A program made the position numbers and the translations under genes. The notes below the pieces were generated by a model. That model was given only the letters and a program-made list of their open reading frames with translations, was not told the origin of the DNA and ran no database searches. A DNA stretch of 63,782 bases, the filler included, from Dimorphilus gyrociliatus (Eukaryota > Animalia > Annelida), in NCBI GenBank assembly GCA_904063045.1. It is 3 parts of 3 records of this genome, joined end to end, with 100 filler letters (N's around TTAATTAATTAA, not from the genome) between each part and the next. Parts side by side here need not be neighbours in the genome. Positions count along the whole stretch, not along the records: positions 30,590 to 57,489 come from CAJFCJ010000153.1; 2 more parts are not named here. The stretch is one strand, 5' to 3'. This document shows positions 4,831 to 63,782 of this stretch, piece by piece. Position 1 is the first letter of the stretch. Every line of letters starts with the position of its first letter.

Positions 4831-4837
4831 TTTACCA

Positions 4838-10005: not shown

Positions 10006-10007
10006 GT

Positions 10008-22817: not shown

Positions 22818-22882
22818 ATATCACTGTAATGATGATCTGTGGCTGTATCTACTCAATAACAGTCACAAAACCATCCTACCTA
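22818..22882 (+). mobile_element. Short fragment of the env signal-peptide region
   Basis: TVMMICGCIYSITVTKPSY versus TVMVICGCIHSITVLKPSY at 54435-54492. Confidence 0.75.
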
Positions 22883-27614: not shown

Positions 27615-27823
27615 CTTCCCTATTAAATTTTTTGGACACTGTGCATATAACAATAGGAAACATATTTGAGCAGAAAAATTATATGTTTTTGTAGGCCTAC
27701 TCTAAATACTTTATAAGCATATTGAAAGATTTAAAGTGTATTTGAATAAACTAACAAAGAGGGGTTTTAAATTTTAATGTTTTATAATCAGAAACAAAGA
27801 TTTATTGCCAGTTCTCTTTTAAA

Positions 27824-30489: not shown

Positions 30490-30589
30490 NNNNNNNNNNN
30501 NNNNNNNNNNNNNNNNNNNNNNNNNNNNNNNNNTTAATTAATTAANNNNNNNNNNNNNNNNNNNNNNNNNNNNNNNNNNNNNNNNNNNN
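30490..30589. other. Artificial contig linker (N44-TTAATTAATTAA-N44)
   Basis: Six-frame stop cassette inside an N run, identical to 57490-57589. Confidence 0.97.
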
Positions 30590-30837
30590 AAATATTACAA
30601 AATAAGCATCTGGTAGCCAAGTTAATTAGTCAGGTAATTGTAGTTAATTAATAGGTAAAAGAAAAGTAACAACACAACACTCCCAAAAGAATGTTTTATT
30701 ATAAATAGATTTTTAATATTTGAATGCTTTGTACCTGAAAATTTTGACAAAGTATAAATAGGACAGAAAAATTACAAACTATAAATCATTTTGGTTTGTA
30801 AGTTTGATGATTGAAAGAAAGAAGGAAAAAGAATAAT

Positions 30838-34700: not shown

Positions 34701-34705
34701 TCAAT

Positions 34706-37438
34706 GGGGTGCACGAGAAAATGTCCACAACTGAGGAGAAAACGTCCACAAGAGAAAACATCCACAGGAGAAAACGTCCACAAGAAAAAAATGTCCACAG
34801 GAGAAAACATCCACAACTGAGGAGAAAATGTCCATAGTGAAAGAGAATTTGCTTTTTAAAACCTTTGGAGATTAAGATGAAAAGGAAAATTGAGAGAATA
34901 AATATATAATTTGTATTTATGATATTATGATATGTTGAAAACAAAAACTAAAAACTACAAAAATTATAAAAGACTAAGTTTATAACATGGTAACAAGCTA
35001 AATGAATGAGTTATGATGCAATATAAATGCTGGCTGCCTTTTCCAATAAATCTGATGCAGATATTAATCTGACCTCAAATTGCTCCCATAAGCCAAAGAT
35101 CTGACTTTGAATTTTCTGATAAGGCTTTCTCTGTTGTCTACATATCTTCTTCTCACTTAATAATTTCTTGTACAATGTAATCAACTCTGCTTCTCTCTTT
35201 AATTCATCAATCATAACATACAATGAAGAATTGGCATGGATATTCCTGTTTAATCTATTGTGCCATCCTTCCAGGTCATTGTTGGTTCTGATTGCTTCAC
35301 CATAAATTGACCAGGTATGTGGTGGGTAATATCCATATAGCCACTGGTTCTTGATGTAATCAATGAATGGTCCTAAATGAGTTGAGGTTGTCTGTTCAAT
35401 GTTTTTGAATGCATTTTCAATGATGTTTGATGGCAAAAATGGTAATGCCATTATTTTTTTCATTGTGTGGTAACACTCTCCTTTTGCCTTATATTCACAA
35501 GAGTAGCCCAATTCCTAAAATTATTACATTTCTTAATTTTTTTGCAACAGATGATGATAAAAGTTACCTGAATTTTCCTATATACAGATTGGGTCCAGTG
35601 AAAGACACATCCTTTAATTATAACCTCAGGATAAACAGATGACAATGCTCTCCAGATACCTTTTTCAAAATCCACCACAAATTTCATTGTGAAATGTTGA
35701 TTGGTCAGCTTCTTTATGGACTTTTTTTAAGAATTTTAATACTTAAAAAAATTGAAATTAAAAGTATGTATACCTGAAATAATTTCTTATAAGCTGTCTT
35801 TTTCTTTGATCCCATAAATGCAAACAGTAATGGAACTTGTTTCATTTCTCCATGTTTTTTGATGAACCCATGAACTGTGAACAATTGGTAAAATGGGTCT
35901 CTGACACATTTAAATGTTCCATTCAAAAACCATATCTTTCCTTTAGACAGTAGTTCAATTTGTTTTGGAGTTGACAAAATTATTATTCTGTCATCTTTCA
36001 TTTTAATATCTTTTACCAGAAACTCATCTGGTATAAATGATATTTCAAAATTTGAGTGAATATCTGTCAGCTCTTCTGGCTGAAACCTTCTTTTTGTCCA
36101 ATTTGCCAACCTGGCACAGTTATCCATTGATGGAATAGCTTCTTCACAATCACAATGATGTTTTAATACTTGCTCAGCTAAGTGTTTTCCAGAAGAGAAA
36201 GTTTCAATTTCACACAATTGTTTAATTTCATTTTTAATTAAAATTTTCTTTTCCAGTCCATCTTCTCTTTTATGGGAATGGGGTTTTTTTCCAGGATAAA
36301 ATTGATCTTCCAATTGATTGACACTTGCTGGGCATTTGTTGTTCTTATTCCTTACACTACATGTCCAAAATGTTTTTGTTGACCTTTTCATCTTCATTGT
36401 AAACATATAACCATCATAGGCTAATAGGTCTTTACCTTTTTGACTCATTCCTTTCAGAATTTTGAAAGTTGGCTCCATATCTTCTCTTTTTGATGTTGGA
36501 GAATTTATGAAAGAAGTTTCCATCAAATTATTTGAATCCTGTGAATGATTTTCTGTTGTGATTTCAATGTTACACCCAATCATTAGATCTGTGCTGTTGT
36601 TTTCAACAATAACATCATTATCATCAACATCTGTTCTCATATTTCTATCACTTTCTTTTTCATTTTCATAAATATCTGGACCATTACCAACAACATCATT
36701 CATAGTATTTTGAACTTCATATGTCATCTCTACTTCCTTTTCCACTTCAGAGTTCACTGTTTTGATTTGACTAGTAGACAGCTGTTGTAAGGTGACCAAA
36801 CATGTTCTCTTAGAAATATCTTCACAAATATTGCAAAGAAAGAGATGATTTTCTGTTAATACAATCATTTAAAAAAATTATATATACTATAAAATTGAAT
36901 TTAACCTACTTTTCATGCATTTCTTGTGAATTATTACCCAATGGTGACATAGTTGACACTTTGTTTTATGCTTTCTTCGAACCATTTTCTCCTTATAATT
37001 GTAGCAATATGCCATTATCTATCAGTAAAAAGAGAAAGTTACCCCAAAATGGCTGCTCAAATATTTTAAAAGAGATTTTATTAATTAAAGTTTTACCTTT
37101 AACTGATTCATTTTAAAAGAATTATCAAGAGATATTCTGGTGTATTGAATTTTTTTGATACTGTGTTGTACTTGTGAAATATCCTTTTCAGATAATATTT
37201 GTATCAAACTCTCTTTGTATGGAACAAAAACAGGAAACCATAACAGAAAATAGTTCCTCAACAAAATGGAGAACCTGACATTGCATAATTTTTATTATCA
37301 CTACAATGTACATACATTATTAATTTTAATTTCCATGGCCATTTTCCCCTATAGACTTTTTCCACTGTGGACATTTCTCCTGTGGACGTTTTCTTCTGTG
37401 GATGTTTTCTCTTGTGGACATTTTCTCCATAAACCACC
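34706..37438 (-). mobile_element. Near-complete Phantom-like MULE with foldback (tandem-repeat) TIRs; PHD-FLYWCH-MULE transposase, first catalytic D changed to N
   Basis: Arrays of GAGAAAA(T/C)(G/A)TCCAC at 34706-34835 and inverted at 37345-37435. ORF 35714-36868 has FLYWCH (WTCSVRNKNNKCPA..HSH) and WFLNGTF. VVDFE..GCVFHW and RTNNDLEGWHNRLN lie downstream across two GT-AG introns. No clean TSD was found. Confidence 0.92.
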
Positions 37439-39899: not shown

Positions 39900-42800
39900 A
39901 AACTTCTATATGAAGTAAAATAATTTATTTTCTCTTCTACAATTTGAAAAGCACAGAGCTACAGCTGAAGATATTTTATGTTCTCTGCAAAAAAAGTAAT
40001 GGATAATCAGTTTTTTTTTGCTTTTGCCATTTGTCCTTAGAACAACAAGAAAAAGGAAAATAATCCTACACTTTGATTTTTTTCTTTCTTTGATTTGTTT
40101 TATAAAATGATTTAACATCTTTAAAAGTGTATATCAATGGATTTAGAACAGAATTTAATGGTAGAACAAGAACAGTAATTGCAATATAGATGTCATTTTT
40201 GAATTGTAAATTGAAAAATACTGAGTATATTCCTTGAAAGGAAAATTGAAAAGACTATTATGATTTCTAATGTGTTATGTTAATTGATTGAAAAATCTAA
40301 CCTAAAAATGAAATTGGAAACCAACACAAAAAATTAGTTATTACAATTATGAAAGCATTTGATTTGAATTTTCTTTGTTGGTATTTGAATTGATTTTCAT
40401 TAACTATTCCCCTCCTTTCCAAAGTTAATTTCCATATTCTCATATAAAGAACTAATATTATCAGACAAATCATTTGTAGAAGGATTCCAAAGATTATAAA
40501 TGAAAATGTCCATCCTTCAACTCTTTCACTCCTTATTTGTAATGTGAAACATATTGGACTCTTTGAGTAGTAAGACTGTATGGAAAATTCATGGAATGCA
40601 TTATTAATCAATTATTAATTCAATTCGGGTTAGAAGAGCTTTGACAAACACACTGACTTTATAGATTACTATGGGAATTGCTGATATGAGTCCTGATATC
40701 AGAAATATGCACATTGTTATAACAATTGATAAGGATGGCCTGAATATCTTCCTAAATGGCCAAGCAGTAATGGTATATCTCTCAATTGTTACCATTAAAA
40801 GGCTTAGAGCGGAAATCATTATGGAACAACTGCAAAACCAGCCAATGAATTTACAGCCAACACTTGTTCTCCATTGGATATCATGATCTGAATATCTGCC
40901 TCTATAATAAGTATCAAAAGTGCCAATGACCAGTAGGAAAATTGATGTACATAAATCAGCCAAAGATAGGCCAAAATGGAAAAAGTTTTTAATAATTTTT
41001 TTATTCAGTTTCCTTAAAATAATTGATAGGAAATTCTCAAAAAATGCTAATAAAGCAAATATCCAAAGGACAACTCTAATAGTTGGAGATTTAATTAAAT
41101 CAGTGCAAGAATTAAAAATTGATTTCTTTGGTAGGCATTTCTCCATCATCTTTGAGAATTCCCATGCAATGCAACAGAATACAAAATGTCTACTGTATAA
41201 TTCTCTTAAAGAGTAGAGAGGTTTTAATAGGTTGTATGAATATTTTAAAGGCAGGTAAGTATTTTCCAGCATTAGGTATTGTAGGCTTATTAATGATATG
41301 AAAGCGTCTCTATCAACACTGTATATATAGCAATTAGCAATTATAAGACTCAATAAGTTTTTTAGCCCTAGTAGCAGATTTTTAGAAATATAGGATATGG
41401 TAGTGGAAGAGAAGTCAATTGATCTTAGGGACAATGAATATTTGAATGTAATTGATTCTTGTATCTTTAATGCAGTTTTTCTAATTATTAAATTTTGCAG
41501 TTTTCTCAATGGATGATCATAGAAGATTGCAGTGAAATTCAAATATTGACAATTTTCAATTTCTAAATGAACAACGTTTGGTGAAATCTTTGAAATTGGA
41601 AAATTTAAATAAGTAACATTGTGTAATGCCAATAAAATTATGGTGAAGGATTGTTTAAAAATGTGAAATTTTTTCGAATTCAAATTATTTCCAATAATAT
41701 TTGAAATATTGATTTTTTTAAATCCAGAATAGATTATATTTGTCAAATTTTCTACAAGTACTTTATCGTTCTCATAAAAAATGCAATGGATTGAGTAAAA
41801 CTGCAAACATTGACACTTTTCATGGAAACAAGAAGGTTGGAAATTGTTGAATGTGCAATAGAGTTCATCATTACCCTTCAGACAATCAACTCTACCATTG
41901 CAAACATTGTTGATTGGTATAAATGTACTTTGATTTTTACACTTAAAATAACCTTTTGGTTGAAAATTATCTATTTAAAGAAATAAAAAAAAGCAACTAT
42001 CATTCATTGTTATAAATGTTTAAAATTTATTGGATTGGATGACATAGAAAATGTCTATTTGAAAACACGGCTTGGAAAATTTATAAGAAGTATTTAAAAG
42101 GGTTAAAAGGGTCTTGGGGGACAAGAACAACTGACATTTTCCATTATGTCACACCATTGACATACTGCAATTGAATTCATCATCAAAATGTGTACAGTGA
42201 ATAACACCATCACAGACATTCTTTATTGATATACAATATCTACTCTTCTTACAGAGGTAACTTCCACTTGGGCAAGATGCTCTATTACAATTCTTCAATG
42301 CATTATAGGGAAAGTGGACTTTTGTCAAAACATTTCCCATAGAATCATAATTCAATTGGCAAATTTTATCAACTTGGAATTTTGAACATTTTCTAACATT
42401 GCTTCTATAAAGTGAATTACATGTGCTAGATTCCTCATCTTCTTTATTCAAACAATTCACACTCATATCGCAAACTGTATCCATTCTGATGCATTTTTCT
42501 TTGCATTGAAATAAACTATGTTCAGTACAATCTAAAAAACAAAAAAAAAAAAACATTATCAAAGATTTTTTTGTTATTGCTCTCTAATTTTTTTTTATTA
42601 TTATCAATCAACTTAATGTATTTTCAATTTTATCTTTACAACTTTCATCACTTTCATCAAAACAGTTTTTTTCAAAATCGCAAAATTGTGTTTTTTGAAT
42701 GCATTGTCCATTGTTGCACCTTATTTTGTTTAGTAAAATAATTAGTATAATTGATAAGTTTGTTAAATAACTAAAAAAATAACTGTAACACTTCCTATCC

Positions 42801-45800
42801 CTTCCACCCATCCACCCACCTTATTACAGGTGACCTTAAGTGAAAACTTATGAAATTATTCAACTGTAAACTCTATACTCTACCTATTTTGTAAAGGACA
42901 AATAGGCCATACTGTGAAAAGAGAAGTCAAGAGAGAGAGAAGAAAAAAAAGGAAATACAAAAACAGCAACTTGTTCATTATTGATATACTTACAGCAATT
43001 CTCTTCATCAGCATTATTTTTGCAGTCTTTCACGTGATTGCAGACATGTTTTAAAGAAATTGTAGTATTTACATTGCAAAAAAACTGTTCATTCAATGAA
43101 CAATTCCTCTCATCTTCATTTGAAAAACAATCTTTTTCTCCATCACATACATTCATCAAATTAATACACATAACATCTTTGCTACAATAGAATGAATTTT
43201 TTGGACATTTAGTAAAATTGCTATTTTCCAATTCATCAGTAAGTGAAAACTGGTAATAATCTTGAAATAAAATTTTTTTTTCAAAATATGAATATTAAAA
43301 TTTTGAAATATAAAATACTAAATTCTTACATGAAAGTCTGCATACAAAGAAATATGCAACATTTTTGTCACAGCTGAATGGAACATTACCATATTTCAAG
43401 TCTGTTGAAAAAGAGACAGGTATCGCAATATAACATTTACTTTGTTTGTTTGACAAAGAGAAATGATTTGAATAAAATTTATGAGCATGTTTCAAAATAT
43501 ATTTTTTCAAAAAACATTTGTCTATGTAACTTGGAAAAAAAGAATTTTAGAAATTAGATGATGGAGAATTAAATGGAGAGAAAAGGTCTAATGACATAAA
43601 AAAATCCTACACAGAGAGAGAGAGAGATACTAAAAATTGTAGATAAACATCTGTAGGATTGTCTATTCAATAGGCCTTTTCCAAACTGAATTATTTATGA
43701 TGATGATAATAATGATGATTAGTTACAGATTTGTATAATTTAGTACAAAGTTGTAGAGTTCATATGGTGTCATATCATCATGCACAAGTATATCATGTTC
43801 TCTGGCATCCTTGACTAATCTTAGTACTTGGTAAATAAAAAATATTCTTTTGTTTCATTATATATTTTCTATATAGCAAGATTAAGTTTAAAAGTTTTAC
43901 TTACATCCTGGTAAACTGCTTTTTAAATCAATTAGTTGGGATTTCTGGTTAATTTTTGCCAAAACATTGATAAAATCGTACTCGTCATTTGACATATATG
44001 GTAATGAAGCATTGAGTTGTCTACACATTTTTGATGCCTTATTTATTGATATAGTTCCATCTGGTTTAATTGGCAAATAGCAGCCATATTCAAAAGTATA
44101 AGAATTCTTATCAGAACACATAATTTCTGTTTTTTTTTTAAAAAAACAACTATAATTCTGAAATCTTTGCAGATATCAATCAAAGAACTCAATTTTGGAT
44201 TTTTTAAAAGTAAATGGTATTTATTGCAGTCATCTCCTTAAATACTCACTTTTTTTGCAATCCATCAATTGAGTTCTTTCTAAGTATAAATTAGAAAGCA
44301 GTATACCATTGTTATTTAAGCATTTAAGGTCAGGTATACTCATGTATTCACTTCAAAACAAAAAAAAACTGTTTATTCTCTTTAGCTTGTTTTACAAAAT
44401 TGAAATTGTTTGAAACTTACAGATAATCCATCCAATTCTCATTAGTTGTAATTTTACATTGTGACACATTATAGTAGTTTGGACAGGTAATAAAAAAATA
44501 TTTTTGCTGTATGATATTAATAGCGTACAACTGATTTGTAGCAATCAATGTTCCAGTTTTATAGCCAAAATATTGGCAGACAGCCAATGTTTCATAATAT
44601 TTTACAGTTGCCACTGCAATTGAATACCAATTATAATTATTGTATAGGAATACTATACCATCAAAGCTATTGGCAGTTTTTTCAGTTTTTCTACTATTTC
44701 TCAGTAAATAGCTTCCATCATTGTTTTGAAACATAAATTCTTTGTCTGAAGTAAAGGTTTTTAGTGATTTTTTGTCTTTTTTTTTACATAGGGAAAAGGT
44801 GTAAGTAACTTTTAATTATTGTTTCATTCACACAATTGCCAGCTATCATAAAACCATTAGATTCTGGATTTCTATATGATAGGCATACATTGAATGGTCT
44901 ATTGCTGATAGAGCATAAATCAAATGTTGGAGGGAATGAGAAATCCAAGTGGTAATTTATTGAGGAACAACTACCAAACTAAAATACATGAAATTGTCTC
45001 TAGAAAATTCAAAATTCAAATGAAATGATTAGTGTTTTTCCCCATACCTCCATTGCTGTTGATGATTGAACAATAAATCCAAATGGTAGCGCTATTTGTC
45101 CAATTGACCTACAGATTAGGGAAGAGATTTTGTATTGGTTTCTCGCTTTGAATACCAAAGGAATGTGACCAAATGTTTTAGAAACAACCATATAAGATAA
45201 AGTTTTTGTTGAATTGGTTTTGAAAAATACTTTTTTATGGAATGGCTTCATCTTTTCTACAGAAAAATCTTGTTTGTTTGTTTTCAATTTATTAATAGCA
45301 GCTGTTGAAAAATATTTAAAAATTTTCTACCTTCAAGTTCTCTCTTTGTGCAAAAAATCAATTTTGTTGAATTTATATTTGTTACATTTCCAATAATTTC
45401 ATTTCCATTTTTGTAGAATGCAAAAGTTTTAAAACTTTTTGAATTAATTTCATTCAAGTAAAATTGAATTTTATTGCAAAAATTCAAATTTGAAGTATTA
45501 TTTTTTACTAATTGATAATTTGTTTTTCTGTGTCTGACAAACAATTGATAATCATCATCATCCAGATTCAGATTTGCAAATATGACTGAAAAGAGGAAAA
45601 CAATGATGAAATTAACATTTTTGAATCAAGGAAACATTTTTTTATATATCATTGATAAAGGAGTGACAGAAATTGCCTAAGATTTGTAGTTAGGTAGGTC
45701 TAAGCTAAGGTTAAATCTTGGCTTAACCAAACCACCAGTTTCAGTATCTTGATTCAAATATTGATTGAAATAATTTTTCATAAAAAAATTCAAATTTACA

Positions 45801-48800
45801 TGGTGTAGTTGTTTTGTAGCATTTGAGACAAAGTGAACCAAGTGTTTGTGAATATTCATCTAAATTGATATACCTGCTACAGAGGTGTTATCATGTACAA
45901 TAAAAAAGATTATAAAAAAACACCATCGATAATTACAGAATTAATCTCTTCTTGTAATTTGTTACTGATACTTGCAAACTATCTTTTAATTTTGTATTTA
46001 AAAATAAAAATTATGTTAAAATTCTAAAAGATTTTCTTTCTTTCTGTTTTTTTCTTTACCTTCTCTCGGATCACATGCTTCGGCAATAAAATGAATATTA
46101 TCATATCCTAATGATCTACATAGGCCTTTGTAGAAATTTGCATTTAAACCAATTCCAAATGCCACATATAACTTATTATCATTATTTTTTAATTTGGCAT
46201 AGATTTTTCCATAAATTGAGAATTTATTCTCCATTAAAGTTTCTACTGAGTAGGTATAAAGCTTTGGATTTAGAATTTGCTTTGTACTTAACTCTGCAAA
46301 ATGTGGACAGGTGATGCTTTGAAGTTCATTTAGTGAAGAGAAGATTACATATATTGCAATTTGAAATATTCTTATTAATCTACAAATAGGGATTAGCATT
46401 TTTCTTCTATTTTCAATAGAAAATGCTGGATTACTTTGGTTTGTTTTTTCTGATTAAGAATATCAAAAAAAAATGAAAATCATTAAAAACTGATGTTCAA
46501 AATTACTTGGTTTTTTTTTTTTTACAGTTTTACTAATTTTACATTAGTGGTGTTCAGTTTCAATGGTAAAAGAATTCTTTAATTTCATTCTAAGGGGCAT
46601 TAAGTACTCTTTTCAATTAGTAGAAGAAAAATATATTATCTTACCAATTTGCACTTGGTCCTATTGTTCAAAAGAGAAAAATAGATTATTATAGTAGGAG
46701 AAAAAATTCGCCATTTTGACAAGAGATTTTCAATTCTAATTGTTAGCATTACCATTTTGTGTCAATTAAGAACTTTGTTGGTGCAATTTTCTTTAATCTG
46801 GAACTAGTTATCCTTTATAATTGTTATAGCAGAGAGGAATTTAAATGCAATGCCAGTTGTTGTTGCCAAGTACTGAAGATGCAATTGTAACCAGGTCTGT
46901 GACAATCCACACATGTGATTTAATATTATTGTGAGTACATCAAGTTGTTTACTTTAGTAGTTTTTTATTATTCAGTCATTTATTGGGCTAGTGTGTCTTG
47001 TTGAAAAAGTCCTTCTCTACCCAACAACAATCTAACCAAACAGCAAATATTAAATCCTCAGTCATGATTGAATATCTTTCATCTGCCATTAGAGGTTTTA
47101 TTGAATAGGTAAAAATCTATGCAAAATGGCAACCTTTTTTAGTAATATAAGAAGAAAATTTATTCCTTTTAAGTAGATAACTACTCAATTCATTATTACT
47201 TTTACGATTGAAGTAATTAAGTAAGCTTAAATCGTAAAAAAAAGTAGTCAATTGTCAACAATTTCTATTTTATCAATATGCAAATTAAGCCATGTTCTCG
47301 CCCAATCACAATCACTATAGGCTTATGAATAGCTACAGCTTTATATAGGTTTCTTTGAAACATCTGAAGAGGAAGGACATTAAAACCTTCAGTCCAGATC
47401 TCAATATCATTGCAAATACATCAAATTGGCTCAATAAGAAAAAAGAATTGTTTCTCTCAAGATGATTAACATTTATTTTCTGCTTTCATTCAAATAAATC
47501 TACCGGTTTTTATTTTAATAATTACTTGTGTTTGTGTGTTTTACATCATTTCTAGATCGTGTAGATTTTTTTTGTTAATGCTTCTTTGTCAAAATCATAT
47601 CCAGTTGGAATTGTACCCTTAGAGAAAATGTCCCAACATGGCTGCAATGATTGATATTGAACATTCCCTTCTTGTTATCATATCAATAAAAACATGTATC
47701 TTAAAGGTCATTTTGTAAACTTTTGTTGTTTATTACCATGGTGATCAGAAAGGTAAATCATCTGAAAGGTGTTGTTATTTTGAATTTTGATTGATAGAAA
47801 CAGAATTTTATACAAACGCCATAAATCGTAAATATTTTGTGTCAGTTGCCACAAGTTTTTATTACAAAATTCAATTACATATTGAATTTGGATGCCAGAT
47901 AGTTGATCTGTATTTGGAATGAACATTTGTACTAACAATGATGTTGAAGGGTGGCATAGGAGACTTAATGAGAAAACTATTTATCTATATGATCATGTGA
48001 TCAACTTGCATTCTTATTTGAAAGATTAGATAAAATGTTATTTTGCTAACAAATATCTCCAACAATACTTTATTGTGTTGTGTGTACTTCAAAAGGATGT
48101 ATATTGGTGTGAAGTGACAGAAAATTCAACAATTACAATACTTGAGATGGAAGAAAAGGAAAAGCTAAATTTTATTTAATTTACATGAATGTAATAAACT
48201 TACTTGGATTACAGTGAAACAGGTATCCTTTAATTGGTACACCTGGATATCTAGATAATAATGTGGTCCATAACTTTTTGGGAATCATATAGTTTGTAAG
48301 TGTTTGAATTTCCAACAAAATATGCTCAAGTTATGAAGTTAGATTAGATATTTGATAATTCATTGTTAAACGTTGTTTCATCTGTACTATCAAAACAATC
48401 TGTGTGAAAATCACACATTTTTGATCTAGGAAGACATTTATCATCACAAGAGAAATATTTGCAACTATTGCTGCATTCTTTTCAAACAGATTTTTTTGTA
48501 AATATTATGGTCAGGGTTATCTAAAAAAATTCTATTATTATCATTTACCAGTTAATTCTATTGAATTTTCTTGAAAACTGGTAGAACATATTTCATCAGT
48601 TCCATCAATACAGTTAATTTCACTATTGCAAAAATATATTGAGTTAATGCATTCATGATTTTTGCATCTGTGTAAAATTAAGTATTAAATATTCTTTAAA
48701 ATTTTCATACACTACAAACTAAAACCTTTTGCCTTTGGAACAATCATCCCATTCTGTTTGAAGAGAAGATTTCATTTGTGATTACAGATTATGAGGAAAA

Positions 48801-51800
48801 AAATTCTTAATTTTCCTTAATCTATTACAGTAGTTAAACAGAAAAAAGCCTCTCAAGCTTTTCTGCTATTCATTATTAAGGGAAACAAGAATTGTATGAT
48901 TATGAAAAAAAAGTTTTACTACAGTTTTCTTCATCATTTCCATTAGAGCATTCTTGTAAATGATCACATACATATTTGTAGCTTATGTTATAGCCATTTC
49001 CACATTGGTATTCATCAGCTTGTGGACAATTTTCTTCATCTTCACCAGAGAAACAATCCAGATATCCATCACACTGGTAAATTCTATTAATACAAATTTG
49101 GTCTATTGAACAATAGAATAAATGTTGAGAACACATATCTTTATTGATATAGAGTCTTAAAAATTGATTTATTAATATTCTATTCTTTCTATTCATTCCA
49201 TCAACTATTGTTCAATATGAAAAAACAATTCCAATGTCAAACTTTTTCATGGACTTATCTAAAGTTCTTACCTGCTGGACTAATACATGGTAGAGTTGTT
49301 ATTTGTTTTAATTCACATGTAGTAGGTTCAATATTGTATGTTTTATGCATGGAATGAAGCAAGGCAGATGGTTTTTCAATTATTTTATATAGAAAACACT
49401 TGGACATTTTGGTAATTGTTGCTTGTCTAATATTGTTTTTGGTGAATTTTCTACAAATGTCTTTCAGGCTAGATTTTCAATTTAAATATCTAAATGATGT
49501 TTTTATCAGTTATATCATACTTATTTAATCACCTATAAAATATTGGTTCTGATGATGTGAAATCATAAGGTTTCTTATCTAAATGAACTATAATTGACCT
49601 ATTTCTGCTATTTTTTATAGTTTTTAGCTCTAAAACATATAAAAAATAAAAAGAAAATGTAATATGTTTAAAATTGACTACATTTGATATTCACTTCCAG
49701 GTAAATTGAAATAATAGCTATTAGATCCCACAGTTTCAATTGACATAAGCAGTTGAAGATGATAAAAAAAATCAAATATTTCAAAAGACAAAAAACTCAA
49801 AGTACTGTTTTTCTTTTTGCAAATATTTTGCACTTTATCAATAGACACTCTCTTTTTATATTGTATCAATAGAAAACAATGATTTTTAAATTGTATTGCA
49901 TCTTTGTTGTTGCATACTGCAGGATCAAATTTAAAAATTTAAATTGTAAATTTTAAACACATACAAAAAACACCTTTGCCATTATTTGAACATTTTATAT
50001 GAATTTATAGTGTATGAAGATTTTTTTTTTTATATTTTAAAAATGAGTTTACTATTGCACTATTTACATTTACACCACATGAAGAGTTATACTCATTTTT
50101 GAATTGAGTACATTTCATAGTTAAATAATAATTAAGAAAAATTGTTGATGTATAAGAATAACTAAATATTTCACCAAATTTAAAACCAAATGGAAATGCC
50201 ACTGGGGCAGTTACAGACTCTAACCCTTCAACCCCAGCAACTCCAACAATTACAATTCAGCCAGCAGGAATGTCAGAAAGGCAACAAAGACTAATTGAAG
50301 ACTATGATAGATTGGTGAGTGAAATGAAAAGAAATAGAATCACAATTCCAACAGATCATGGAGATGGAACACATCACCCAGCACAGAACCCAAATGTTGA
50401 TATCACAACAGTAATTCAAGCATTAAGGGCTGCTTGGGACCGCCCTCAAAGAACTATTCTCAAGTTGTATGATGGAAGCAAGGAGTGTTCAAAATTCAAA
50501 GAAGACTTTAATCAGGCATGTTATGCTTATGGTTGGATAGGTGAAGATGTTGTGAAAGCAAATCTTTTAGATTATTTAACTGGTCCTGCAAAGGATTTGG
50601 TGTTGGCTCTGGATGGAGAGCCTACTGTGGAGGAAATATGGAAAGCCCTCCATGACGAATTTGATCTGGAGCCTTTGGAGTATCAAGAGAAATTGCTTAA
50701 CTTAAAGCAAATGAATGGCGAAAGTGTGGTTCAGTTTGTTAATAGAGCAAAGAAATTGATAAAGAGGTTTTCTCCACCTAGACCAATGGAACCACAATTG
50801 CTTGCAACTATGAAAGAAATAAAACTGATGGAAGTTTTACAAAGAGGATTACAACAGGATATTCTACATTTAGTGTACACCTTACATCCTAAATGTCAAA
50901 CATTGGCAGAACTATATGAGGCTGCTAAGTAAGTAGAAACTTCATTAAAACTAACTCAAAGAAAACCGATCACAATGGTGTCAAAATTGGAAACTCAACA
51001 AAGAAAAGAGACCAAAAAGACCCAGGTAATCAGAAAAGATGCTTCTACAGAAACCCCAAATTTTTGGAATAGAAAGCATGTACCTGACAACAAAAATGCT
51101 ACTAAAGAAAAGTTTTCAAGCCAAAAAGTCCAAAAGTATGCACCAACTACAACAAACAGGTATTATAAGAAAAATCAACCAGCAAAGACAATTCTGAAAG
51201 AGGAACCTAAGCTACAAAAATTAGAAACATTAGACAATGAAAGCATGTCAGAAAATGATGAAGTTCAAGATATTCTCTGTTTTTCAGATAGTGACTTGTT
51301 ACAAAGCAAACAATCTGAGCAAAATGCTTCAACATTTATTGGACAATTTGAAACTAATAATGGTTTTAAGTTTGATGCCTTGATAGACTCTGGTACTGAC
51401 AGATCTTTTGATTCAAAAAAGGTATTAAGACAAGTTCAAGGAAAAGCATCCTTCCCAGAACAAACTGTGAAAAATGCTAGAGATGCTTCAGGTAATAGCA
51501 TAGAGATATGTGGAGAAATCATTCTCAGACTTTATTTTAATGGAAAGATTATTAAACAACGCTTTCTGATCAACAAAATCATTACACAACAATGTATTAT
51601 TGGGTGTGACTTTCTACAACAAAATGGAGCTACCCTTGACTTTGGCAAGAGACAGATTATACTCCAGCCAGGTACAGAAAAGAATTACCCTGTTGGAACA
51701 CAACACTTATCTTTCAAAGGATTTTACCCAGTTCCTCTTATTATGAAAAGAATGAGAGTCAAATACATACCCTTCAGACAACAATTGAACAAGAAAATCT

Positions 51801-54800
51801 GGAGATGAAGGACAAAGTTACCCAAATTCTGGCGAAATATAAAGAAACTATTGCAGAAGACAGATTTGATATTGGCAATCCAGAGGTACCACCCTTGGAA
51901 ATAACTCTTGAACCAGGTTCAACACCATATAGACAAAGGCTATATAGAATGCCTCCTCAAAAACAAGAAGAATGTAAGCAGCAGATAGCTGAATCTTGGT
52001 GAACTGTTGCTCCATATTTTAGAAGGTTGGAAAGTTGCATAAGATGTAAAAATTTTTGTACGTGTTGGATTGATTCCAAAATCCAAAAATAGGCAAAGGT
52101 CAGCCTTAGTACTGTTCTAATATACTGCAAACTTTTAATAATAATTGTAAGATGTTTTAGCATAAAAAAGTGATAGGTATAAACTAAATAAACTTAATTA
52201 TTCAAAATAGTATTGTGCATACAAATTCATATAAAAATTGTTTGCCATTATTAAAATTTAATATATTCATTTTTAATAAATTATATCCAAATTTTTTTTA
52301 ACTAGATGAAACTAAACTTTGCCTCTTGGAAGATACTTCTAAAAATAGACAACGTAGAAAACTCCATTTGAATTTTAATTTTTTCAATAATTTTACATAT
52401 TTTATATGCATAAGGAAAATTTGTATAGAAATTGTTATTAATAATAAACATAATAATTTGTATAACATATTTAGATGTAGGATTTAAAATATGATCTGTA
52501 TTCCGTGAAGTAATTGTGTAAAGCAAAAAATACCAATAAAAGCTTAACTGGTATTAAATAATTTCAATTTCATATTGAATTCCATCAGAATTTGAATTGT
52601 GTTAAAGAAACTATTATCCCAGAAGAGGAAACTGTGATCTCTAACCAACAACCCGTGAGCAAAGTAAGTTATACCTTGTGAACAGCTTGTAACACTCTTT
52701 AAAAATACCATTATTTCTTCTTCATTAAATTCTTCGTAGATAATTGATTTTTGATAAGTATACCTGTCTGGATAATTGCTACTATGCAATTCTAGTAATT
52801 CTTCAGAGTTATTATCCAAATACACCATGCCAAAATGATTATTTATAATTTTGCATGTCACATTTGAAATACCACTCTCAATATTTGGTTGTATTCAAAA
52901 TTTACTGGAAGTAGTGTTTTTCTTTTGTAACCCTTTGAAACACGTTCTAAAAACTTCTTCGGATTTGACAGATAAGGAAGTGAGTAGTCAGACGAAATGT
53001 TTTGAAAATATTACATTTGTCATGGTACAGTTAAGAGCTACAGCCTTCTGTAAATCCATCATGGTAAAAGAACAATATAGGGAAAGCAAGAATAGAAATC
53101 TCAATCTTCCAAAATATTTTGAGGTTGATGATGAAGTATTCTTAAGAAATGATGGTGCAAGAATTGCAATAACAAAAATCCCTTCTTTAAAATGGTTAGG
53201 CCCATACCGAATAACAAAAGTCAATCATCAAAAGTGGATATATGAAATACAAATGGATGATAATACATGCAAGTTTGTACATGGTAGCAGATTAAGACTA
53301 GCCAATGAATCTAATAAGTTGGAAACAGGGAAAGAAACAACAACAATCTTTCTCCTTGTGGAGAAGGAAATAACACACCTCCAATATCTTTCTCAGGTAG
53401 AAGGAAGAAATGACTTCCAATTCCGTTTGAAGAATCACAAAGGCAGAGAAGTCATTGCCTTGTGTGACACAGGAGCATTGAGATCCTTTATTACTGAAAA
53501 AGAAATCAAGTTAATGGATGTCACAATTATGGATAAAGAAACAATTGGCTTACCAATTATAACTTCAGCTGATGGGAAAGCTTTAAAGCAAAAAGGAAGC
53601 ATAAAGCTGAATATCCAATTTGCTGGAGAAAGTATGGAACAAGAATTTATCGTTATGGAAAATCTAGACATAGCAATAATACTTGGTTGTGATTTCCTAC
53701 AAACTGTGGGAGCAAACCTCAATTTTTAAGCTAAACAGTGTTCTCTCAAATTTGATAGAAGGAAAGGGAACCTGGCTGAAAGAATAAGGCAACCTCAACT
53801 AAACAAAGTCACTATAGCTATGATGGGACAGCATGACTCTTCATCAGAAATCTCAGATAGTGATGATTCAGAGATGGAAGTTACTAATTCTGATACTGAT
53901 TATGACACAAGCAATACTTTTGAAACAGACAGTAATTACAGTGTCAATGAACCCTCAAGCTCATCTGAAAGTGATGACACAGAAACAAATAATGAACTGG
54001 ATCAAAACACAGATTCAGAGGCAAACATTATCTCTGATAGAGAAGAGGAAATACCTTGTTCAGACAATGAGTCAATAATTACTGAAAGTGAAATTATTGA
54101 TATAACCCATTCTGATAATGAGTCAACAATTATTGAAGGTGAAATTATTGACATAACCCATTCAGATAATGAGTCCATCATAGTGGTAGATTCATCCCAA
54201 GATGAGAAAGAAAATACAGGTGACACAGACAATGAGTCAGTCATATTTTTAGATGAGACTAAAATCATCTCTGAACAATTAGATTCCCAACAAGAAGTGG
54301 GACCACAATATATAGAGTTAGAGGATGGAATAACTATCAGAGTGGAACAACAACACAAAATTTTCAACCATTCAACTATAGCCAACACAGGAAGAGCTAA
54401 CATGAAACAGATGTTGTGGCTTCCACTAGTGATGACTGTAATGGTGATCTGTGGCTGCATCCACTCAATAACAGTTCTGAAACCATCCTACCAAGGTGCA
54501 CATGTTACAACTGCAAACATTACCTTAACATTTAAACCACTGTTATACTTTTGTTCTAACCAACTACCAAGCCAGGCATTTGATCTAGCAGATGAGCCAA
54601 CTTGTAATATAGAATCACAAGAAACCAAGACAATTACAGCTGATATCTATGAATTGAACTTGGAAGAAATTGAAACAAGAGCAGTAAAATGTCAAGTGTA
54701 TCTAAGAACTAATTTTTACACTTACTATTTCTTTGGAGCAAAGAAGAGGAGAATTGTTAACTCAGTTATTAAAGTAACTCATGATCAATGCAGACAGATG

Positions 54801-57400
54801 GTAAAAGACAAACAATCTTTTCAAGGAAAACCTTTAATGGTGAAAAGAAACACTTGGATCCACCAAGATCAGCTTCCTGCTGCCTACACATGGCCAACAA
54901 CTACCAAGGTGCTGGAATACACCACAATTATCCAGTTTGGCAAAGCATATTGGCAACCTCCTAATATGAAAATTACAACTAATCTGGACTACCTGGAAGA
55001 TTGTTTACCAGGGCAGTCCTATTGTGAGACAGAAGAGGCAATTATTGTCTTTAGAAACCTCAAGAATAATTACACACTTCGACAACAATCACCATGGATA
55101 AAAATTAGCAACAGAATTAGTTGTATGAAATTTGCTGGTCACTATTCTTGCCCAGGGTATTCTATTCTGGACATCCCTTATCAAGACAAATTCATTGATG
55201 GAATTGGTGGCCCTGGAACAAAAGTGCTAGTACCACTGGAGGAACAGAGTTTAATACAGGAAACAGGCAAGGAACACCTATACAATTTGCTACAATATCA
55301 AAAGATTGGAAAAAATAAAGAAAAACGACTATTAAACTATCCCAATAAAGTGAAAGAACAAATTATACTATACAAGAGAAACAGCCCCTTACCAAGTCTT
55401 AACCAATGGTATAGAGAAACAAACACAATGTATAAACTAATGAGAAATAAAGGCACACTCAAGGAAGTTGTGATATATCATCTACAACAACCCATTAGTC
55501 CATCTTACTGGGAGCTGGATAACTATTATATCCAAGAAATGCTGCAAGCAGTCAATTGGACAAGGGCAACAAGACAATCTGTTACGATTTCAAAATATGT
55601 ATACAGTGAGAAAAGAATCAAACAGAAGGTATTACCAACATTGGGCATATGGTATAAAGGACCACCAGCCAGAGAATTTAAGATTACCCATGAAGGAATT
55701 TATTTTACTCTACACATGCGAATGGCTAAAAAGCAGATGAAGAAGGAAGCAAAACTGAAACATAATATAAGTAAAAACCCATACCACAAATTCCCATTGG
55801 AAATGAGAGAAGTTGCCCGAACATCTACCTTACTACATGGCATTGATTCAAATTTTAAGAATTTAAAAAAGTTTACCCAACAGCTGTCAAGTCTTCTCTG
55901 CAATCAATTTGTTCAAAGAAGCAGGATGATGGCATTACTAGCAAATTTGGATCCTCAATTGACCACAGTGTTAACAAATGAGTTGGGAATGCACAGTAGT
56001 CAGATGGGAGAATTAGCTATAATTAAACAATGTTCACCAATAGCCTCAACAGAAGTAGTTTGTGACTTAAGCATGATAAAAAAGAATAACAAATGTTCTC
56101 AATTTTTACTTGTCACCATGAACAACCTGCTTTTCCAAGTAGAACCAGTTACTCATGTTTTACAGCAAGTCAATCCTGAAGAGATTATCTATAATGAGTG
56201 TAAGTCTAACAAGTTATTTAAATTATCATCTAGATATTGAAAGGAAAGAAAATAACGTATAACATTTATGTGGAGAAAGAATTAGTATATCTCTCAAATG
56301 ATATTTTGCTAAGAAAACAAAATATAATACAAATTGGAAAAATGTTTTTAAAGGTGATATGTTATGATAAAAGAATGAAACAGATGATTTGATATTTTGT
56401 TAGTGAAAAAACTATTATTCTAATTTTACTTTTTGCAATTTCTCATGTTTTCAATATATAATACCCAAAAATATTGTCCATTAATTAGAGGACATGTTCA
56501 AGTTGAAAGGCAAAAGAATGATTGGCTATATATCTCTAATAAGAGATTTACAAAAAATGAAGCTAAGGTAATGCTATTCATATAGGCCTAAACGAAATAA
56601 TAATAATTTGAATTTCAAAACGAAAACAGAAAATGTGCAAAAAATTCAATTGTATTTCTGATAATAATCATTTTGTGAAAAAGCCTCAAGAATTTTGTTT
56701 AGTGTATTTCTCATTGCATTGCAACTCTGAATCAAAAATGTTGGATGATTGCCAAATTTTTAATATATTAGATGAGAATTTACTATTTGGTGATTATTTG
56801 ATGCCGTTTATTCAATGCGATAATTCAACGTTCTTCTGTAAGATATCTTCTTTTATACTGTCTGAAAAAGGGATTTGTTTGAAAACTCAATGTAGGACTT
56901 GGATCACTATCTGTCATTTCTGCAATTATGTTGGATAAATAGAGAGATTTATACATAAAAGATGGTTCCAACTCCACCATTTAGATTTTCAGTTGAAGAG
57001 CAAGGGTTAGTCACTTTCCTTTGCCAAATTAATTTAATTAGCATATTGCCTAGTTCATCAGCGATTAAGATGTTACATTCATTATGGAGATAGATAGTTA
57101 AGAGCCCTCAATATAATCTTCTCCACTGGATAAGAGTAACTACTTGTAACTTTTCCTCTTGATAGCCATATCTGTAGATTTTCTTTACACAACTCAGTTT
57201 GCAAATACATATTGACAACAAGGAATGTCATCAACAGATGACATCTGTAAAAATCAAATTTTTACCTTTTTGACCTCGTTGACTCTACATTCAAGTTTGT
57301 TTTCAACCTGATTTAGTAACTTGAATGTATAGTTAACAAGAATTGATTGAAGAGTAAGATCTACCTCATAAACTTGTCCATACTATCCTACACCTATTGA
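39900..57400 (-). CDS. Large multi-exon GRL101-like mosaic receptor (CUB/SRCR/C-lectin-like modules, many LDLa, LRR, 7TM); integrity and 5' extent uncertain
   Basis: LDLa exons at 48340-49200 and 41830-43230, C-lectin-like 43897-44121, SRCR-like 44417-44734, CUB-like SSNYPDRY at 52544-52861, LRR plus TM1-4 at 40604-41806 (TIERY) and TM5-6 at 40297-40611. It may be more than one gene or partly pseudogenic. Confidence 0.7.
47620..47980 (+). mobile_element. MULE transposase C-terminal scrap
   Basis: SVFGMNICTNNDVEGWHRRLNEK at 47905-47975. Confidence 0.7.
50200..52000 (+). mobile_element. Gypsy gag, aspartic protease 1 and start of RT (no LTR flanks)
   Basis: Capsid-like LYDG..F..CYAYGW..LLDYLTGPA..LKQMNGESVVQFVNR. 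Same frame after one TAA (50930) to ALIDSGT..IIGCDFL. Then a frameshift to LEITLEPGSTPYRQRLYRMP (RT N-terminus). No zinc knuckle seen. Confidence 0.9.
52990..53729 (+). mobile_element. Integrase C-terminal tail (GPY/F) fused in frame to a second retropepsin
   Basis: KWLGPYRITKV..YEI..VHGSRLR, then ALCDTGALRSFI..SADG..G.I.L.I..F.V....IILGCDFL. Confidence 0.88.
53820..56240 (+). CDS. Acidic SIM-like linker plus class III fusion-type envelope glycoprotein (signal at 54402), C-terminally truncated, no TM anchor
   Basis: 806-aa open frame: Ser/Asp/Glu-rich first ~190 aa, signal MLWLPLVMTVMVICGCIHS, C..Y.YFFG.K..V....C..M..W..AYTWP, and LCNQ..LLANLDP..MGELAIIKQC (gB-like). Confidence 0.78.
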   Translation: MMGQHDSSSEISDSDDSEMEVTNSDTDYDTSNTFETDSNYSVNEPSSSSESDDTETNNELDQNTDSEANIISDREEEIPCSDNESIITESEIIDITHSDNESTIIEGEIIDITHSDNESIIVVDSSQDEKENTGDTDNESVIFLDETKIISEQLDSQQEVGPQYIELEDGITIRVEQQHKIFNHSTIANTGRANMKQMLWLPLVMTVMVICGCIHSITVLKPSYQGAHVTTANITLTFKPLLYFCSNQLPSQAFDLADEPTCNIESQETKTITADIYELNLEEIETRAVKCQVYLRTNFYTYYFFGAKKRRIVNSVIKVTHDQCRQMVKDKQSFQGKPLMVKRNTWIHQDQLPAAYTWPTTTKVLEYTTIIQFGKAYWQPPNMKITTNLDYLEDCLPGQSYCETEEAIIVFRNLKNNYTLRQQSPWIKISNRISCMKFAGHYSCPGYSILDIPYQDKFIDGIGGPGTKVLVPLEEQSLIQETGKEHLYNLLQYQKIGKNKEKRLLNYPNKVKEQIILYKRNSPLPSLNQWYRETNTMYKLMRNKGTLKEVVIYHLQQPISPSYWELDNYYIQEMLQAVNWTRATRQSVTISKYVYSEKRIKQKVLPTLGIWYKGPPAREFKITHEGIYFTLHMRMAKKQMKKEAKLKHNISKNPYHKFPLEMREVARTSTLLHGIDSNFKNLKKFTQQLSSLLCNQFVQRSRMMALLANLDPQLTTVLTNELGMHSSQMGELAIIKQCSPIASTEVVCDLSMIKKNNKCSQFLLVTMNNLLFQVEPVTHVLQQVNPEEIIYNECKSNKLFKLSSRY
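54060..54260 (+). repeat. Coding 51-bp (17-aa) tandem repeat SDNES-x-EIIDITH
   Basis: Units start at 54060, 54111 and 54162, with a fourth degenerate TDNES at ~54225. Confidence 0.92.
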
Positions 57401-59355: not shown

Positions 59356-59559
59356 TTAACAATGGTTATAGATGATTACGCCCTCTTTACCAATTCATAT
59401 CTCAAAACTTATCTTTCAAATTTCATTTATCTCTCTCTTCTTCCAAATGGAAGTTCAAGACAATTTAACCCTAAGCCATTTTCTTAGATAGGAATGTGCT
59501 GATGAAAGAGAACTTGCTAGCTATTAAAGCTGTTCAAGATGAAGAAGATGTTGAAGAAT

Positions 59560-59950
59560 TTTGCCTAATTAATTCGAACAGTAATTGTGGTCCATTATAG
59601 ACAATATTCTTTAAGATGTGCCAGGTATTCTCAATGGGAGAAAGGTCTGGAGAGTACGCTGGCCAAGGTAAGATAGGATACTTACCATTCTTAAAATAAT
59701 TTTTTATAATTTTGGCCTTATGGCAAGGAGCATTGTCCTGCTGGAAGATGTAATCTCTCCCATAACGCTTCTTAAAGAAAGGCGTCACTTCTTTCTTAAG
59801 CAGATTTAAATACCACTCCTTCGTACATTTTTTTTCTATTCTTGAAATGTACAAAAAACCATCTGGCCCCATACAGCCTTATATCATCACTCCCCCACCA
59901 CCCATTTTGTGTTTTTGCTTCTTAACTGTTCACTTTCAGCATTGAACTGC
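59560..59950 (-). mobile_element. Tc1 transposase fragment (DD34E)
   Basis: GGGGVMI*GC, FQQDNAPCH and WPAYSPDLSPIENTW, with 34 residues between D and E. Confidence 0.9.
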
Positions 59951-60379
59951 CATGTTTGAAAATTATTGGGACCATCCAGACTGAATGTACACTCATCAGA
60001 CATGATTATTTTTTTGGAAATCAGTTTGTGCCTGAAACCACCCTCTACATACTTCAACCTTTTCCAGTCAGTTTTTATTATTTAATGAGGGTTGTTGGGC
60101 AATTTTCTTATATTGCATCACCTTTCTTTAGTTTGTTGATTTCATGCTTTATTAGGGTTTTCTCCCTGTTCAAAATGGATTTTGAAATGAAGTTAACTAT
60201 GCTAAAACTTCAATTCATATCCAAGTTGTAATAAATATACATTATGGATAATAAATTGAGCAACAAACTTCCAGTAGTTGAGCAACATTCATTTCTGATC
60301 TTTCAAAACTTTCCCAAGCTTCAAAGATTTTCTGTTGAAGATGTTTATAAATCAGAGAGGAACTTGTTTTAATCCTGAA

Positions 60380-61570: not shown

Positions 61571-62448
61571 TGAATCCTGATGTAATGCCACTTTTAAAAA
61601 AAGGTTAATTAAATGAATACTTTTTAAAATTATTTATTGAAACCATTAATAATATATTTTACAAGTAATAATTCCCTTTTTTACCCATCACTTGAGTTTT
61701 TCATTAGGGAATCCTAACAACCCTAAATTTTAAGTTGAAAGGGTTACTACAACTTCAATAATCTAGCTCTGGACAATCAGCTGGATGTGTAAAAGAGATT
61801 AAACTTCAACTTGGCAATTTTGAAGATGGTCACTAACCGCTAACTTGCAGATGTTCTGACATGATCATGGATTGCTCAAACAGGGAAAATTTGGAAATTG
61901 TTGGTTTGGATGCTAATAACAAGCACTCACCTTAAGCTGTCAGGAAATTGAACTAGGAATGCAGAACAATTTGATAAGCTGATAAATTTGCAGTCAGGCA
62001 ATTTGAAAAATAAGTTTATTCAAAAGATTGTCAATAGTGCATTTTGCATTCTCCAGAATTTACAGCAGATTGTTAAGAATTATCATCCTTGACATTGTTA
62101 TTTTGTAGTTGCCTATAATTACTTATGATTATTATTATAATAGTAGGCAATCAATGAAGGAAATTAAAGACTTTCAGTAAAAGAATTAGCATAGCTTGAG
62201 GTTGAGATTAGGGTTAGGGTCAAGGTTAAAGTTTACCAGTCAACAAAAAAACAACACACAAAATTCCTAAACTGAATAATGTGTTTTTGAAGAAAATTAT
62301 TCAGAATTTATTACATGTAATAAATATAAGTATAAGGTTTATAAATATAAGTTTATTAGATAATTAAATTACCTGAACTACTCAACATTTTTTCAAAAAT
62401 TTCTTAAGGTTACTGCTTCCTTCTTCATTTAAATAACAGTACATAGCA

Positions 62449-63409
62449 TCAATCTCCATGCAATGAATGTTTTGATTGCTCAAGTCCTTTACAAATATCT
62501 AAAAATCCAATTTTTGTATCAATATTCCCATTTAATTTAATTTCCTGAATTGCTGAACAATTTTCCAACAATTTCCCAAGATTAGTGATTTGTTCTTCAT
62601 TTAAATTACAGAATGAAACATGAATCTTTTGCAATGAATGTTTTGATTGCTCAAGTCCTATACAAATATCCAAAAATCCATTTTTCATCTTAACATTCCC
62701 ATTTAATTTAATTTTCTGAATTGCTGAACATTTTCCAACAATTTTCTCAGACTTCTGCATAGTTCCTCATTTAAATTACAGCGTCTAACATGAATCTTTT
62801 GCAATGAATGTTTTGATTGCTCAAGTCCTTTACAAATATCCAAAAATCCATTTTTCATCTCTATTTTTAAGTAATGAAATTTCCTGAATTGCTGAACAAT
62901 TTTCCATGATTAGCGATTTGTTCTTCATTTAAATTACAGTAGGAAACATTAATCTTTTGCAGTGAATATTTTGATTGCTCAAGTATTTTACAAATATCCA
63001 AAAAGCCACTTTTCATCATTTTATTCCCTCCTAATTCAATTTCCTGAATTACTGAACATTTTCCCAACAATTTCCCAAGATTAGTGCTTTGTTCTTCATT
63101 TAAATTACAGTATCTAACATCAATCTTTTGCAATGAATGTTTTGATTGCTCAAGTTTACAAATATCCAAAAATGCATTTTTCATACTTTGATTCCATTCA
63201 ATTGAGTAAACATCACTGGTTGGGACTTGACATTCCTGTTGACACTTTGGACAAGTCAGTTTATTGTTACTAATATCTGACTGTTGTAAACATTGTAAAC
63301 AGAATGTACGATGACAAGGAAGTATTCTAGGATCCTTATCCACCACCAGATCCAAACAAATAGCACATATAACACTTTCCTCTTTTACAATATATGTAGC
63401 AGCAGCCAT
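62449..63409 (-). pseudogene. TRIM-type RING finger fused directly to ~5 RI-type LRR double repeats; frameshifted after repeat 2
   Basis: CAICLD..DPRILPCHRTFCLQCL..CPKC followed within ~25 aa by SLQKIDVRYCNLNEEQ repeats. The DNA unit is ~171 bp (62461, 62632, 62802, 62960, 63131). Confidence 0.8.
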
Positions 63410-63782
63410 TCGTTGTGGTTATTAAAATAGAAAAAATATTATAACCATGGTTATAGTTAACATGTAATTAGTTTGATATTTATGGATTAACTGAAATGTT
63501 ATTAAAAAATTTGAACATTGAGCTGTGTTATTATTAAAAATTAACCAAAGCCAGAAATATTCTTCCAGAATGAGGTGGCTAGCCAAGGAATACAATTCCA
63601 ACCTTGATGAAGAGGCAAACTTTGCTACCAGAATCAAAGGAAATAAGAAAAAATAAAAGACCTGTCGAGGAAGGATCAACTAGAGAAGATAATAATAGTT
63701 GTGGAGGACCTTAAGAGAAAAGTGCAAATAGGAGAGGTTAATGAGGTATACAAGCACAGTGCCATGCTCCAGGTGTAGATGT

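Follow-up and report, generated by a model that had tools for sequence, protein, structure and literature searches.

A second retropepsin between integrase and env in an abundant Ty3/Gypsy family of Dimorphilus gyrociliatus

To our knowledge, LTR retrotransposons and retroviruses share a fixed layout in which one protease is encoded, upstream of reverse transcriptase (RT).

In the annelid Dimorphilus gyrociliatus the most abundant class of transposable elements is Dingle (Dinophilidae Gypsy-like elements), which belongs to Ty3/Gypsy (PMC7854359). No second protease is described for Dingle in the accessible text of that report, where the word 'protease' occurs once, in a laboratory method, and where the domain map lies outside the text (PMC7854359). 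According to the accessible parts of a survey of 1,512 env-carrying elements, the same host carries Annelida_Polychaeta_Dgyr_errantivirus_1, an element with an env of the HSV/gB type, a GAG-POL label, seven near-identical intact copies and a length of 9,315 nt from LTR to LTR; it is flagged there as an outlier with a chromodomain after the integrase, and one protease is named in POL, the word 'protease' occurring once in the main text (PMC13524379). Outside Ty3/Gypsy, Atlas virus and related nematode belpaoviruses encode Gag, Pol and Env as a single polyprotein of 2,828 residues, the arrangement that is inferred for the Dimorphilus element below (PMC9094657). Atlas differs from that element in being Bel/Pao rather than Gypsy and in having a class II, phlebovirus-like Env, and the accessible portion of PMC9094657 makes no mention of a second protease in these viruses. 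Likewise, the accessible texts on Troyka (PMC12440569) and on polychaete transposable elements (PMC8556966) contain no second protease. No report of a two-protease LTR element was found in the literature searched, a scope outside which most subscription papers and Repbase reports fall.

The locus described here lies in a window of 63,782 nt of D. gyrociliatus DNA (filler included), the whole stretch that was analysed. Positions 50188–56218 on the + strand hold a decayed member of an abundant Ty3/Gypsy family that has an envelope gene and, between integrase and env, a second retropepsin, PR2. This family resembles Dingle in its host, its high abundance and its gB-like env downstream of the integrase (PMC7854359, as far as accessible). 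Its size is estimated at 9.2–9.5 kb by summing the parts that were measured, 2.3 kb assumed for the stretch from RT to integrase, and two LTRs; a family lacking PR2 would come to about 8.2 kb. The published 9,315 nt fits the former and not the latter, and size thus supports a match. By host, env type, abundance and size, though not by a sequence match, the PR2-bearing family is very likely Dingle / Dgyr_errantivirus_1. The two accounts differ in the domain after the integrase, which is a chromodomain in the published element, as described in the accessible text (PMC13524379), versus an SH3-like tail plus a retropepsin here. The initial annotation knew of no described element with this order of domains; the family itself has very likely been published, but the second protease is absent from the published text that was searched.

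Layout of the element and state of the copy in the window

The copy is a truncated LTR-type element in AT-rich animal DNA, cut at both ends (50188 and 56218). It consists of gag, the canonical protease (PR1), a post-frameshift stretch, 1 kb of foreign DNA, the integrase tail, PR2, an acidic linker, a hydrophobic segment and an env-like ORF, in that order. The gag region (50188–51316, + strand) begins where the high-depth region starts, at 50188, lacks its 5′ end, has an in-frame stop at 50930 and matches PNMA weakly (22.1 bits against a cut-off of 25). PR1, a canonical retropepsin, lies behind gag (51341–51670, +) as initially claimed, with its DSG at 51386 and matches to RVP, RVP_2 and gag-asp_proteas just under the cut-off. 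Then come a frameshift near 51745 and the presumed start of RT, cut at 51994 (51745–51994, +), as placed by ORFs and contig comparison: contigs from three runs have an indel relative to the window copy at 51745 and diverge from it at 51994. The RT label is by position only, because no Pfam family matches this stretch.

Positions 51995–53024 are unrelated AT-rich DNA that is not part of the element, with a GC content of 0.26 versus 0.33–0.36 in the element and with mostly flank-level depth. They stand in for RT, RNase H and the integrase core in the window copy. The junction at 51994 is spanned by an identical contig at single-locus depth (run X1, record 3). Of the Ty3/Gypsy order gag-PR-RT-RNase H-integrase, the window copy shows the two ends, gag-PR at the start and integrase at the close, and lacks RT and RNase H.

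The integrase C-terminal helix and GPY/F (SH3-like) tail occupy 53025–53306 (+). Taken alone the label is weak, at 14.7 bits for Integrase_p58_C against a cut-off of 27 and 14/37 identities to a Gypsy integrase tail. It is backed by copy C, a second copy in the window, because there a helix matching 53027–53097 lies behind the zinc finger and core of an integrase, both of which score above their Pfam cut-offs. The region also matches the tail of copy B, a member of a sister family. By way of copy C, the HHCC finger, rve core and GPY/F tail of a Ty3/Gypsy integrase are all found, and the closest Pol relatives are Gypsy-type. No chromodomain family is among the Pfam matches for 53025–53330 (to E 5) or for the whole ORF (to E 0.05). 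That ORF, 52851–53729, had been read as passing in frame from the integrase tail into PR2. The reading stands from 53025 onward, but the first 58 codons (52851–53024) are foreign DNA, and low GC (0.26) together with flank-level depth rules them out as a coding part of the element protein.

A 34-codon spacer in the sequence (53307–53408, +) separates the integrase tail from PR2 (53409–53750, +). The linker behind PR2 (53751–54401, +) has a short basic part and then an acidic Ser/Thr-rich tract with 52 D/E, 44 S/T and 3 K/R in 167 residues. Tandem repeats of 51 nt occupy 54048–54244 of this tract, each coding a D-N-E-S motif; D-N-E-S is also present upstream of PR1. The hydrophobic segment that follows a Met at 54402–54485 (+) is the sole 19-residue window above 1.6 in 53025–56237 and is predicted to be the signal or signal anchor of Env. 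Across the same 53025–56237 there is one in-frame stop, at 53727.

Profile matches place an Env ectodomain of class III fusogen type at 54486–56218 (+), cut before the transmembrane anchor. Ten env relatives were found among 1.84 billion representatives. A profile of the 11 env sequences matches solved viral glycoproteins at E 9e-5 to 2e-4, in entries that we take to be rabies G. Rhabdo_glycop_FD is present in 2 of the 11 members and Glycoprotein_B, weakly, in 1. The relative P0007, whose env is 70 % identical, continues to a transmembrane helix with a cytoplasmic tail behind this anchor. A feature search with P0007 (Atlas) returned Baculo_F clusters of low recognition value, a weak dissent that was weighed less. 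Env is therefore predicted to be of the class III fusogen type, with the layout of an HSV/gB-type errantivirus env and the anchor supplied by P0007. A third env fragment (22820–22883, +) has 86 % DNA identity to 54432–54495 and lies in the opposite orientation to copy B.

Elsewhere in the window, two tandem, intronless-looking ORFs on the − strand (24375–27701 and 27824–30541; 1,108 and 905 residues) encode NACHT plus LRR-like (NLR) proteins. Arrays of LRR-like repeats of about 171 nt are found at 9972–11477 and 62350–63420, the second alongside a RING finger. A long cysteine-rich repeat protein with VSP-like matches is encoded at 16747–19949 (−), a rhodopsin-type GPCR at 30811–31866 (+), and pieces of LDLa-LRR-7TM receptors at 40604–46453 and 34204–34947 (−). 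DNA transposon remnants at 8371–9063, 35011–36868, 3495–4073 and 59534–60081 include a mariner-type DDE (Pfam), FLYWCH/MULE-like sequence and, by eye, a Tc1-like fragment.

The second retropepsin and its distribution

All motif positions given initially hold: DSG at 51386 in PR1, and DTG at 53466, TSADG at 53562 and IILGCDFL at 53676 in PR2. PR2 keeps the D-T/S-G catalytic motif, the flap and the C-terminal hydrophobic-G-x-D-F-L motif. Its region 53391–53726 exceeds the gathering cut-off in four of the six Pfam protease families matched, namely gag-asp_proteas (30.9 bits, cut-off 28.2), RVP (29.0, 20.7), RVP_2 (27.8, 20.3) and Asp_protease_2 (26.9, 24.3). Pfam support is clearer for PR2 than for PR1, which falls just short in three of the same families. 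The stop at 53727 lies inside the PR2 fold, because the RVP_2 match extends when the stop is read as X, its end moving from profile position 121 to 131 of 136. The protease assignment made initially is borne out by the four Pfam cut-offs passed, but the fold is incomplete at the end of the ORF: the stop cuts the last strand and the frame continues into env.

A profile built from PR1 and PR2 retrieves ASPRV1 structures (E 2e-5) and, more weakly, Ddi1. A single-sequence search of solved structures gave no match, and the ESM Atlas gave no usable match to PR2. Structure models of PR2 are too poor to serve as evidence (mean pLDDT 40 and 45); a fold search with the second of them ranked retroviral proteases first, none at E 0.001, and is given no weight. 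Prediction of a PR2 homodimer gave 0.11 against a mark of 0.32, which speaks neither for nor against. By profile and motifs, PR2 is predicted to be a retropepsin (clan AA, family A2-like).

PR2 and PR1 share 33/99 identities (z 17.9 against shuffles), with no DNA similarity left. Against two other Gypsy proteases PR2 reaches z 5.1 and 1.7, while those two reach z 17.2 with each other. In a five-row tree PR1, PR2 and the gene model P0005 group together with support 93/87 and long branches. Because PR2 is nearer to PR1 than to the two other Gypsy proteases, it likely goes back to an old duplication of PR1 within the lineage, as judged from a thin sampling of two outgroups and this long-branched tree. 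The host retropepsins ASPRV1 and Ddi1 are the best solved-structure matches to the PR1/PR2 profile, but distant ones (E 2e-5 at best). Capture of PR2 from the host is not indicated, since the distance between PR2 and PR1 is far smaller than that between the profile and either of them.

The placement of PR2 was compared with contigs of four runs over 49500–57000, contigs here being majority paths over many copies and not single loci. Record 10 of run X2 is collinear with 53025–55762 at 69 differing letters (2.5 %) without a gap, and extends 492 letters further upstream; it represents integrase tail, PR2, linker and env in a copy other than that of the window. Record 18 of run X5, collinear with 53023–54342, also derives from another copy. 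Depth in run X1 is 35,604 and 31,006 in the two PR2 bins, within an element range of 15,193–58,342, and flank bins are at 116–183; this is more than 100-fold above the flanks, though depth is not a copy number.

Copy C (4820–5684, +) has the integrase zinc finger and core (rve 38.7 bits, cut-off 32.6; Integrase_H2C2 25.9, cut-off 25.5), then the helix and the PR2 flap. Its nucleotide identity is 83 % to 53027–53097 (integrase helix) and 75 % to 53555–53617 (PR2 flap); an internal deletion of about 457 nt lies between the two, and 21 PR2 codons are left. P0005, a D. gyrociliatus gene model, starts within PR2, so that the catalytic motif and the upstream neighbour fall outside it. It is identical to the window copy at 46/66 positions (70 %) in PR2 versus 17/44 (39 %) beyond, into the linker, and PR2 is therefore the better conserved part. 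Copy C and P0005 each show part of the integrase-PR2 arrangement. PR2 has the base composition of the element, and the repeats of 52900–54500 (15 direct families, 21 inverted) include no insertion scar or target-site duplication around it. Linkage of integrase and PR2 in other copies, named beforehand as a test, was found in the contigs and in copy C; the absence of insertion boundaries of PR2's own was likewise confirmed, no repeat pair bracketing it. The placement of PR2 is family-wide and not a one-off nested fragment.

Copy B (20338–21330, −; 41–57 % identity by tblastx) has the integrase tail, 110 nt and then env, with neither PR2 nor an acidic linker. The spacing from integrase tail to env is 110 nt in this copy versus 1182 nt in the PR2-bearing element. 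Its integrase and env are in different frames, and the copy is decayed. Three distant Gypsy Pol proteins (P0020–P0022) all have an integrase of finger-core-GPY/F layout, in two of them behind RT and RNase H, and all end in a low-complexity tail (by eye). They share with the Dimorphilus element the GPY/F tail and, in the two full-length proteins, an acidic tail and the order protease-RT-RNase H-integrase. They differ in that a protease behind the integrase is found in 0/3, whereas PR2 sits between tail domain and acidic tract here. Because copy B and these three proteins have no protease at that position, the most fitting view is that a single lineage acquired PR2, in the place where the integrase tail domain ordinarily gives way to an acidic tract.

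In protein collections, integrase tail plus PR2 gave one match (P0005) among 773 candidates of 385–2000 residues and none among 98 of 120–384; the search covered chains up to 2000 residues, and a full polyprotein would exceed 2000. None of 94 and 129 pattern matches in metagenome contigs and none of 3 in viral contigs was confirmed as an integrase tail-PR2 locus. That no PR2-carrying relative turned up outside the host in the collections searched is weak evidence.

Several other patterns are seen in the contigs. A derivative that skips 51992–53832 (RT, integrase and PR2) and keeps gag, PR1 and env is present in runs X1 and X5, with a depth of 1,331 in X1; it is possibly a non-autonomous subfamily. 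In a diverged contig of run X1, 53291 is connected to 54480 through a stretch of unknown letters. Across PR2, 60 nt on the − strand (53494–53553) have textbook GT-AG intron ends and are skipped exactly by the main contig of run X5. This run has near-zero depth on the flanks, and the skip occurs in one of its contigs and is absent from the other three runs; it looks like spliced antisense RNA. In run X6, C>T accounts for 206 and G>A for 170 of the 438 differing places over 49500–57000, as from a cytosine-conversion library, and this run might report the methylation state of the element.

Possible roles of the second protease

The reading given most weight, at somewhat less than an even chance, is that PR2 acts in a Gag-Pol-Env polyprotein and releases Pol from the Env leader, which is anchored in the membrane. 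The initial annotation had suggested release of integrase from an env precursor, which agrees with the anatomy, or else processing of a host target. Translation of working copies would run in one open frame through integrase, PR2, linker and env, giving one Gag-Pol-Env chain. The hydrophobic segment at 54402 would send Env into the ER, leaving the upstream part cytosolic and tethered to the membrane by the leader. PR2 domains side by side on the membrane could then form dimers that cleave near the integrase tail, in the linker, or at both places. Such a cut would free Pol on a schedule apart from that of PR1, without waiting for particle assembly, and PR1 would act after assembly. In other Gypsy elements the protease acts after particle assembly. 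A polyprotein is suggested by there being one stop in 53025–56237, by a PR2 fold that runs past this stop, and by the other lesions of the window copy. Atlas-type belpaoviruses do make Gag-Pol-Env as one chain (PMC9094657, accessible text), and retroelement proteases act as dimers (PMC2577118, accessible text). The wider proposal is held slightly more tentatively. It views Dingle as a two-protease endogenous virus in which an ER-anchored duplicate cuts the Gag-Pol-Env chain before assembly and the other protease matures the particle afterwards. Against a role for PR2 in this cut, PR1 could in principle make it too, and Atlas, in the accessible text, manages with one protease position (PMC9094657); because copy B lacks PR2, env-carrying relatives do not need it.

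Pol may instead end at or just after PR2, Env being made separately from the Met at 54402, by splicing or by programmed read-through. PR2 would then serve Pol as an accessory domain at its C terminus, trimming integrase or, if packaged, cutting the cytoplasmic tail of Env. Gammaretroviral proteases make such a cut with the R peptide. The stop at 53727 in the window copy, the Met directly before the hydrophobic segment, the distant env relatives annotated as separate proteins starting at a signal-like segment and the tail behind the anchor of the close relative are all consistent with a separate Env. However, the same stop cuts the last strand of the PR2 fold, P0005 is open there, and another copy is collinear and free of stops over the 224 codons from stop to Met, which leaves a separate Env unlikely, if a serious alternative. 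Improbable, too, is a pairing of PR1 with PR2, either as halves of one enzyme, like the lobes of pepsin in one chain, or with PR2 timing or restraining PR1. Retropepsins are dimers (PMC2577118, accessible text), and PR1 and PR2 look like duplicates with the dimer-side C-terminal motif in common. Independent homodimers would nevertheless each be expected to retain a complete D-S/T-G and flap, and both proteases do; at 33 % identity, moreover, an interface would have needed co-evolution. In retroviruses, early activation of the protease inside Gag-Pol blocks assembly.

About as improbable is self-release of PR2 followed by cleavage of a host protein, such as a silencing or immune factor. PR2 does occupy the post-integrase slot in which LTR elements gain accessory domains (chromodomains; PMC13524379, accessible text), and it has diverged from PR1 far enough to allow a new specificity, but the analysis turned up neither a host target nor any sign of rapid change, and PR2 is the conserved part between copies. 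That PR2 is a harmless passenger of an old duplication or nested insertion, carried along as the family amplified, is less probable still. It would agree with the sister family of copy B, which does without PR2, and with codon differences between copy C and the window copy that show no clear constraint (5 synonymous and 7 non-synonymous in 20 PR2 codons; 5 and 6 in 23 codons of the integrase helix), although copy C is decayed. The catalytic, flap and C-terminal motifs of PR2 are, however, intact even though DNA similarity to PR1 is gone, identity with P0005 is 70 % in PR2 versus 39 % just beyond, and there is no insertion scar. A one-off chimera or assembly error, with a protease fragment in frame by chance, is very improbable. 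It would suit a window copy that has lost both ends and contains foreign DNA at 51995–53024, but the arrangement, whole or in part, recurs in independent contigs and in two diverged copies, and the idea is largely refuted.

Here a thriving family departs from the one-protease rule, the second protease, behind the integrase, being both diverged and conserved. The post-integrase domain of the catalogued Dimorphilus errantivirus may need re-annotation. If the favoured reading, release of Pol by PR2, is true, two retropepsins would divide the labour within one retroelement, for which no report was found in the literature searched. The sister family without PR2 in the same genome is a built-in comparison, and the PR2-bearing family offers a natural test of how env-pol fusions separate cytosolic Gag-Pol from a membrane protein and of how protease timing is set.
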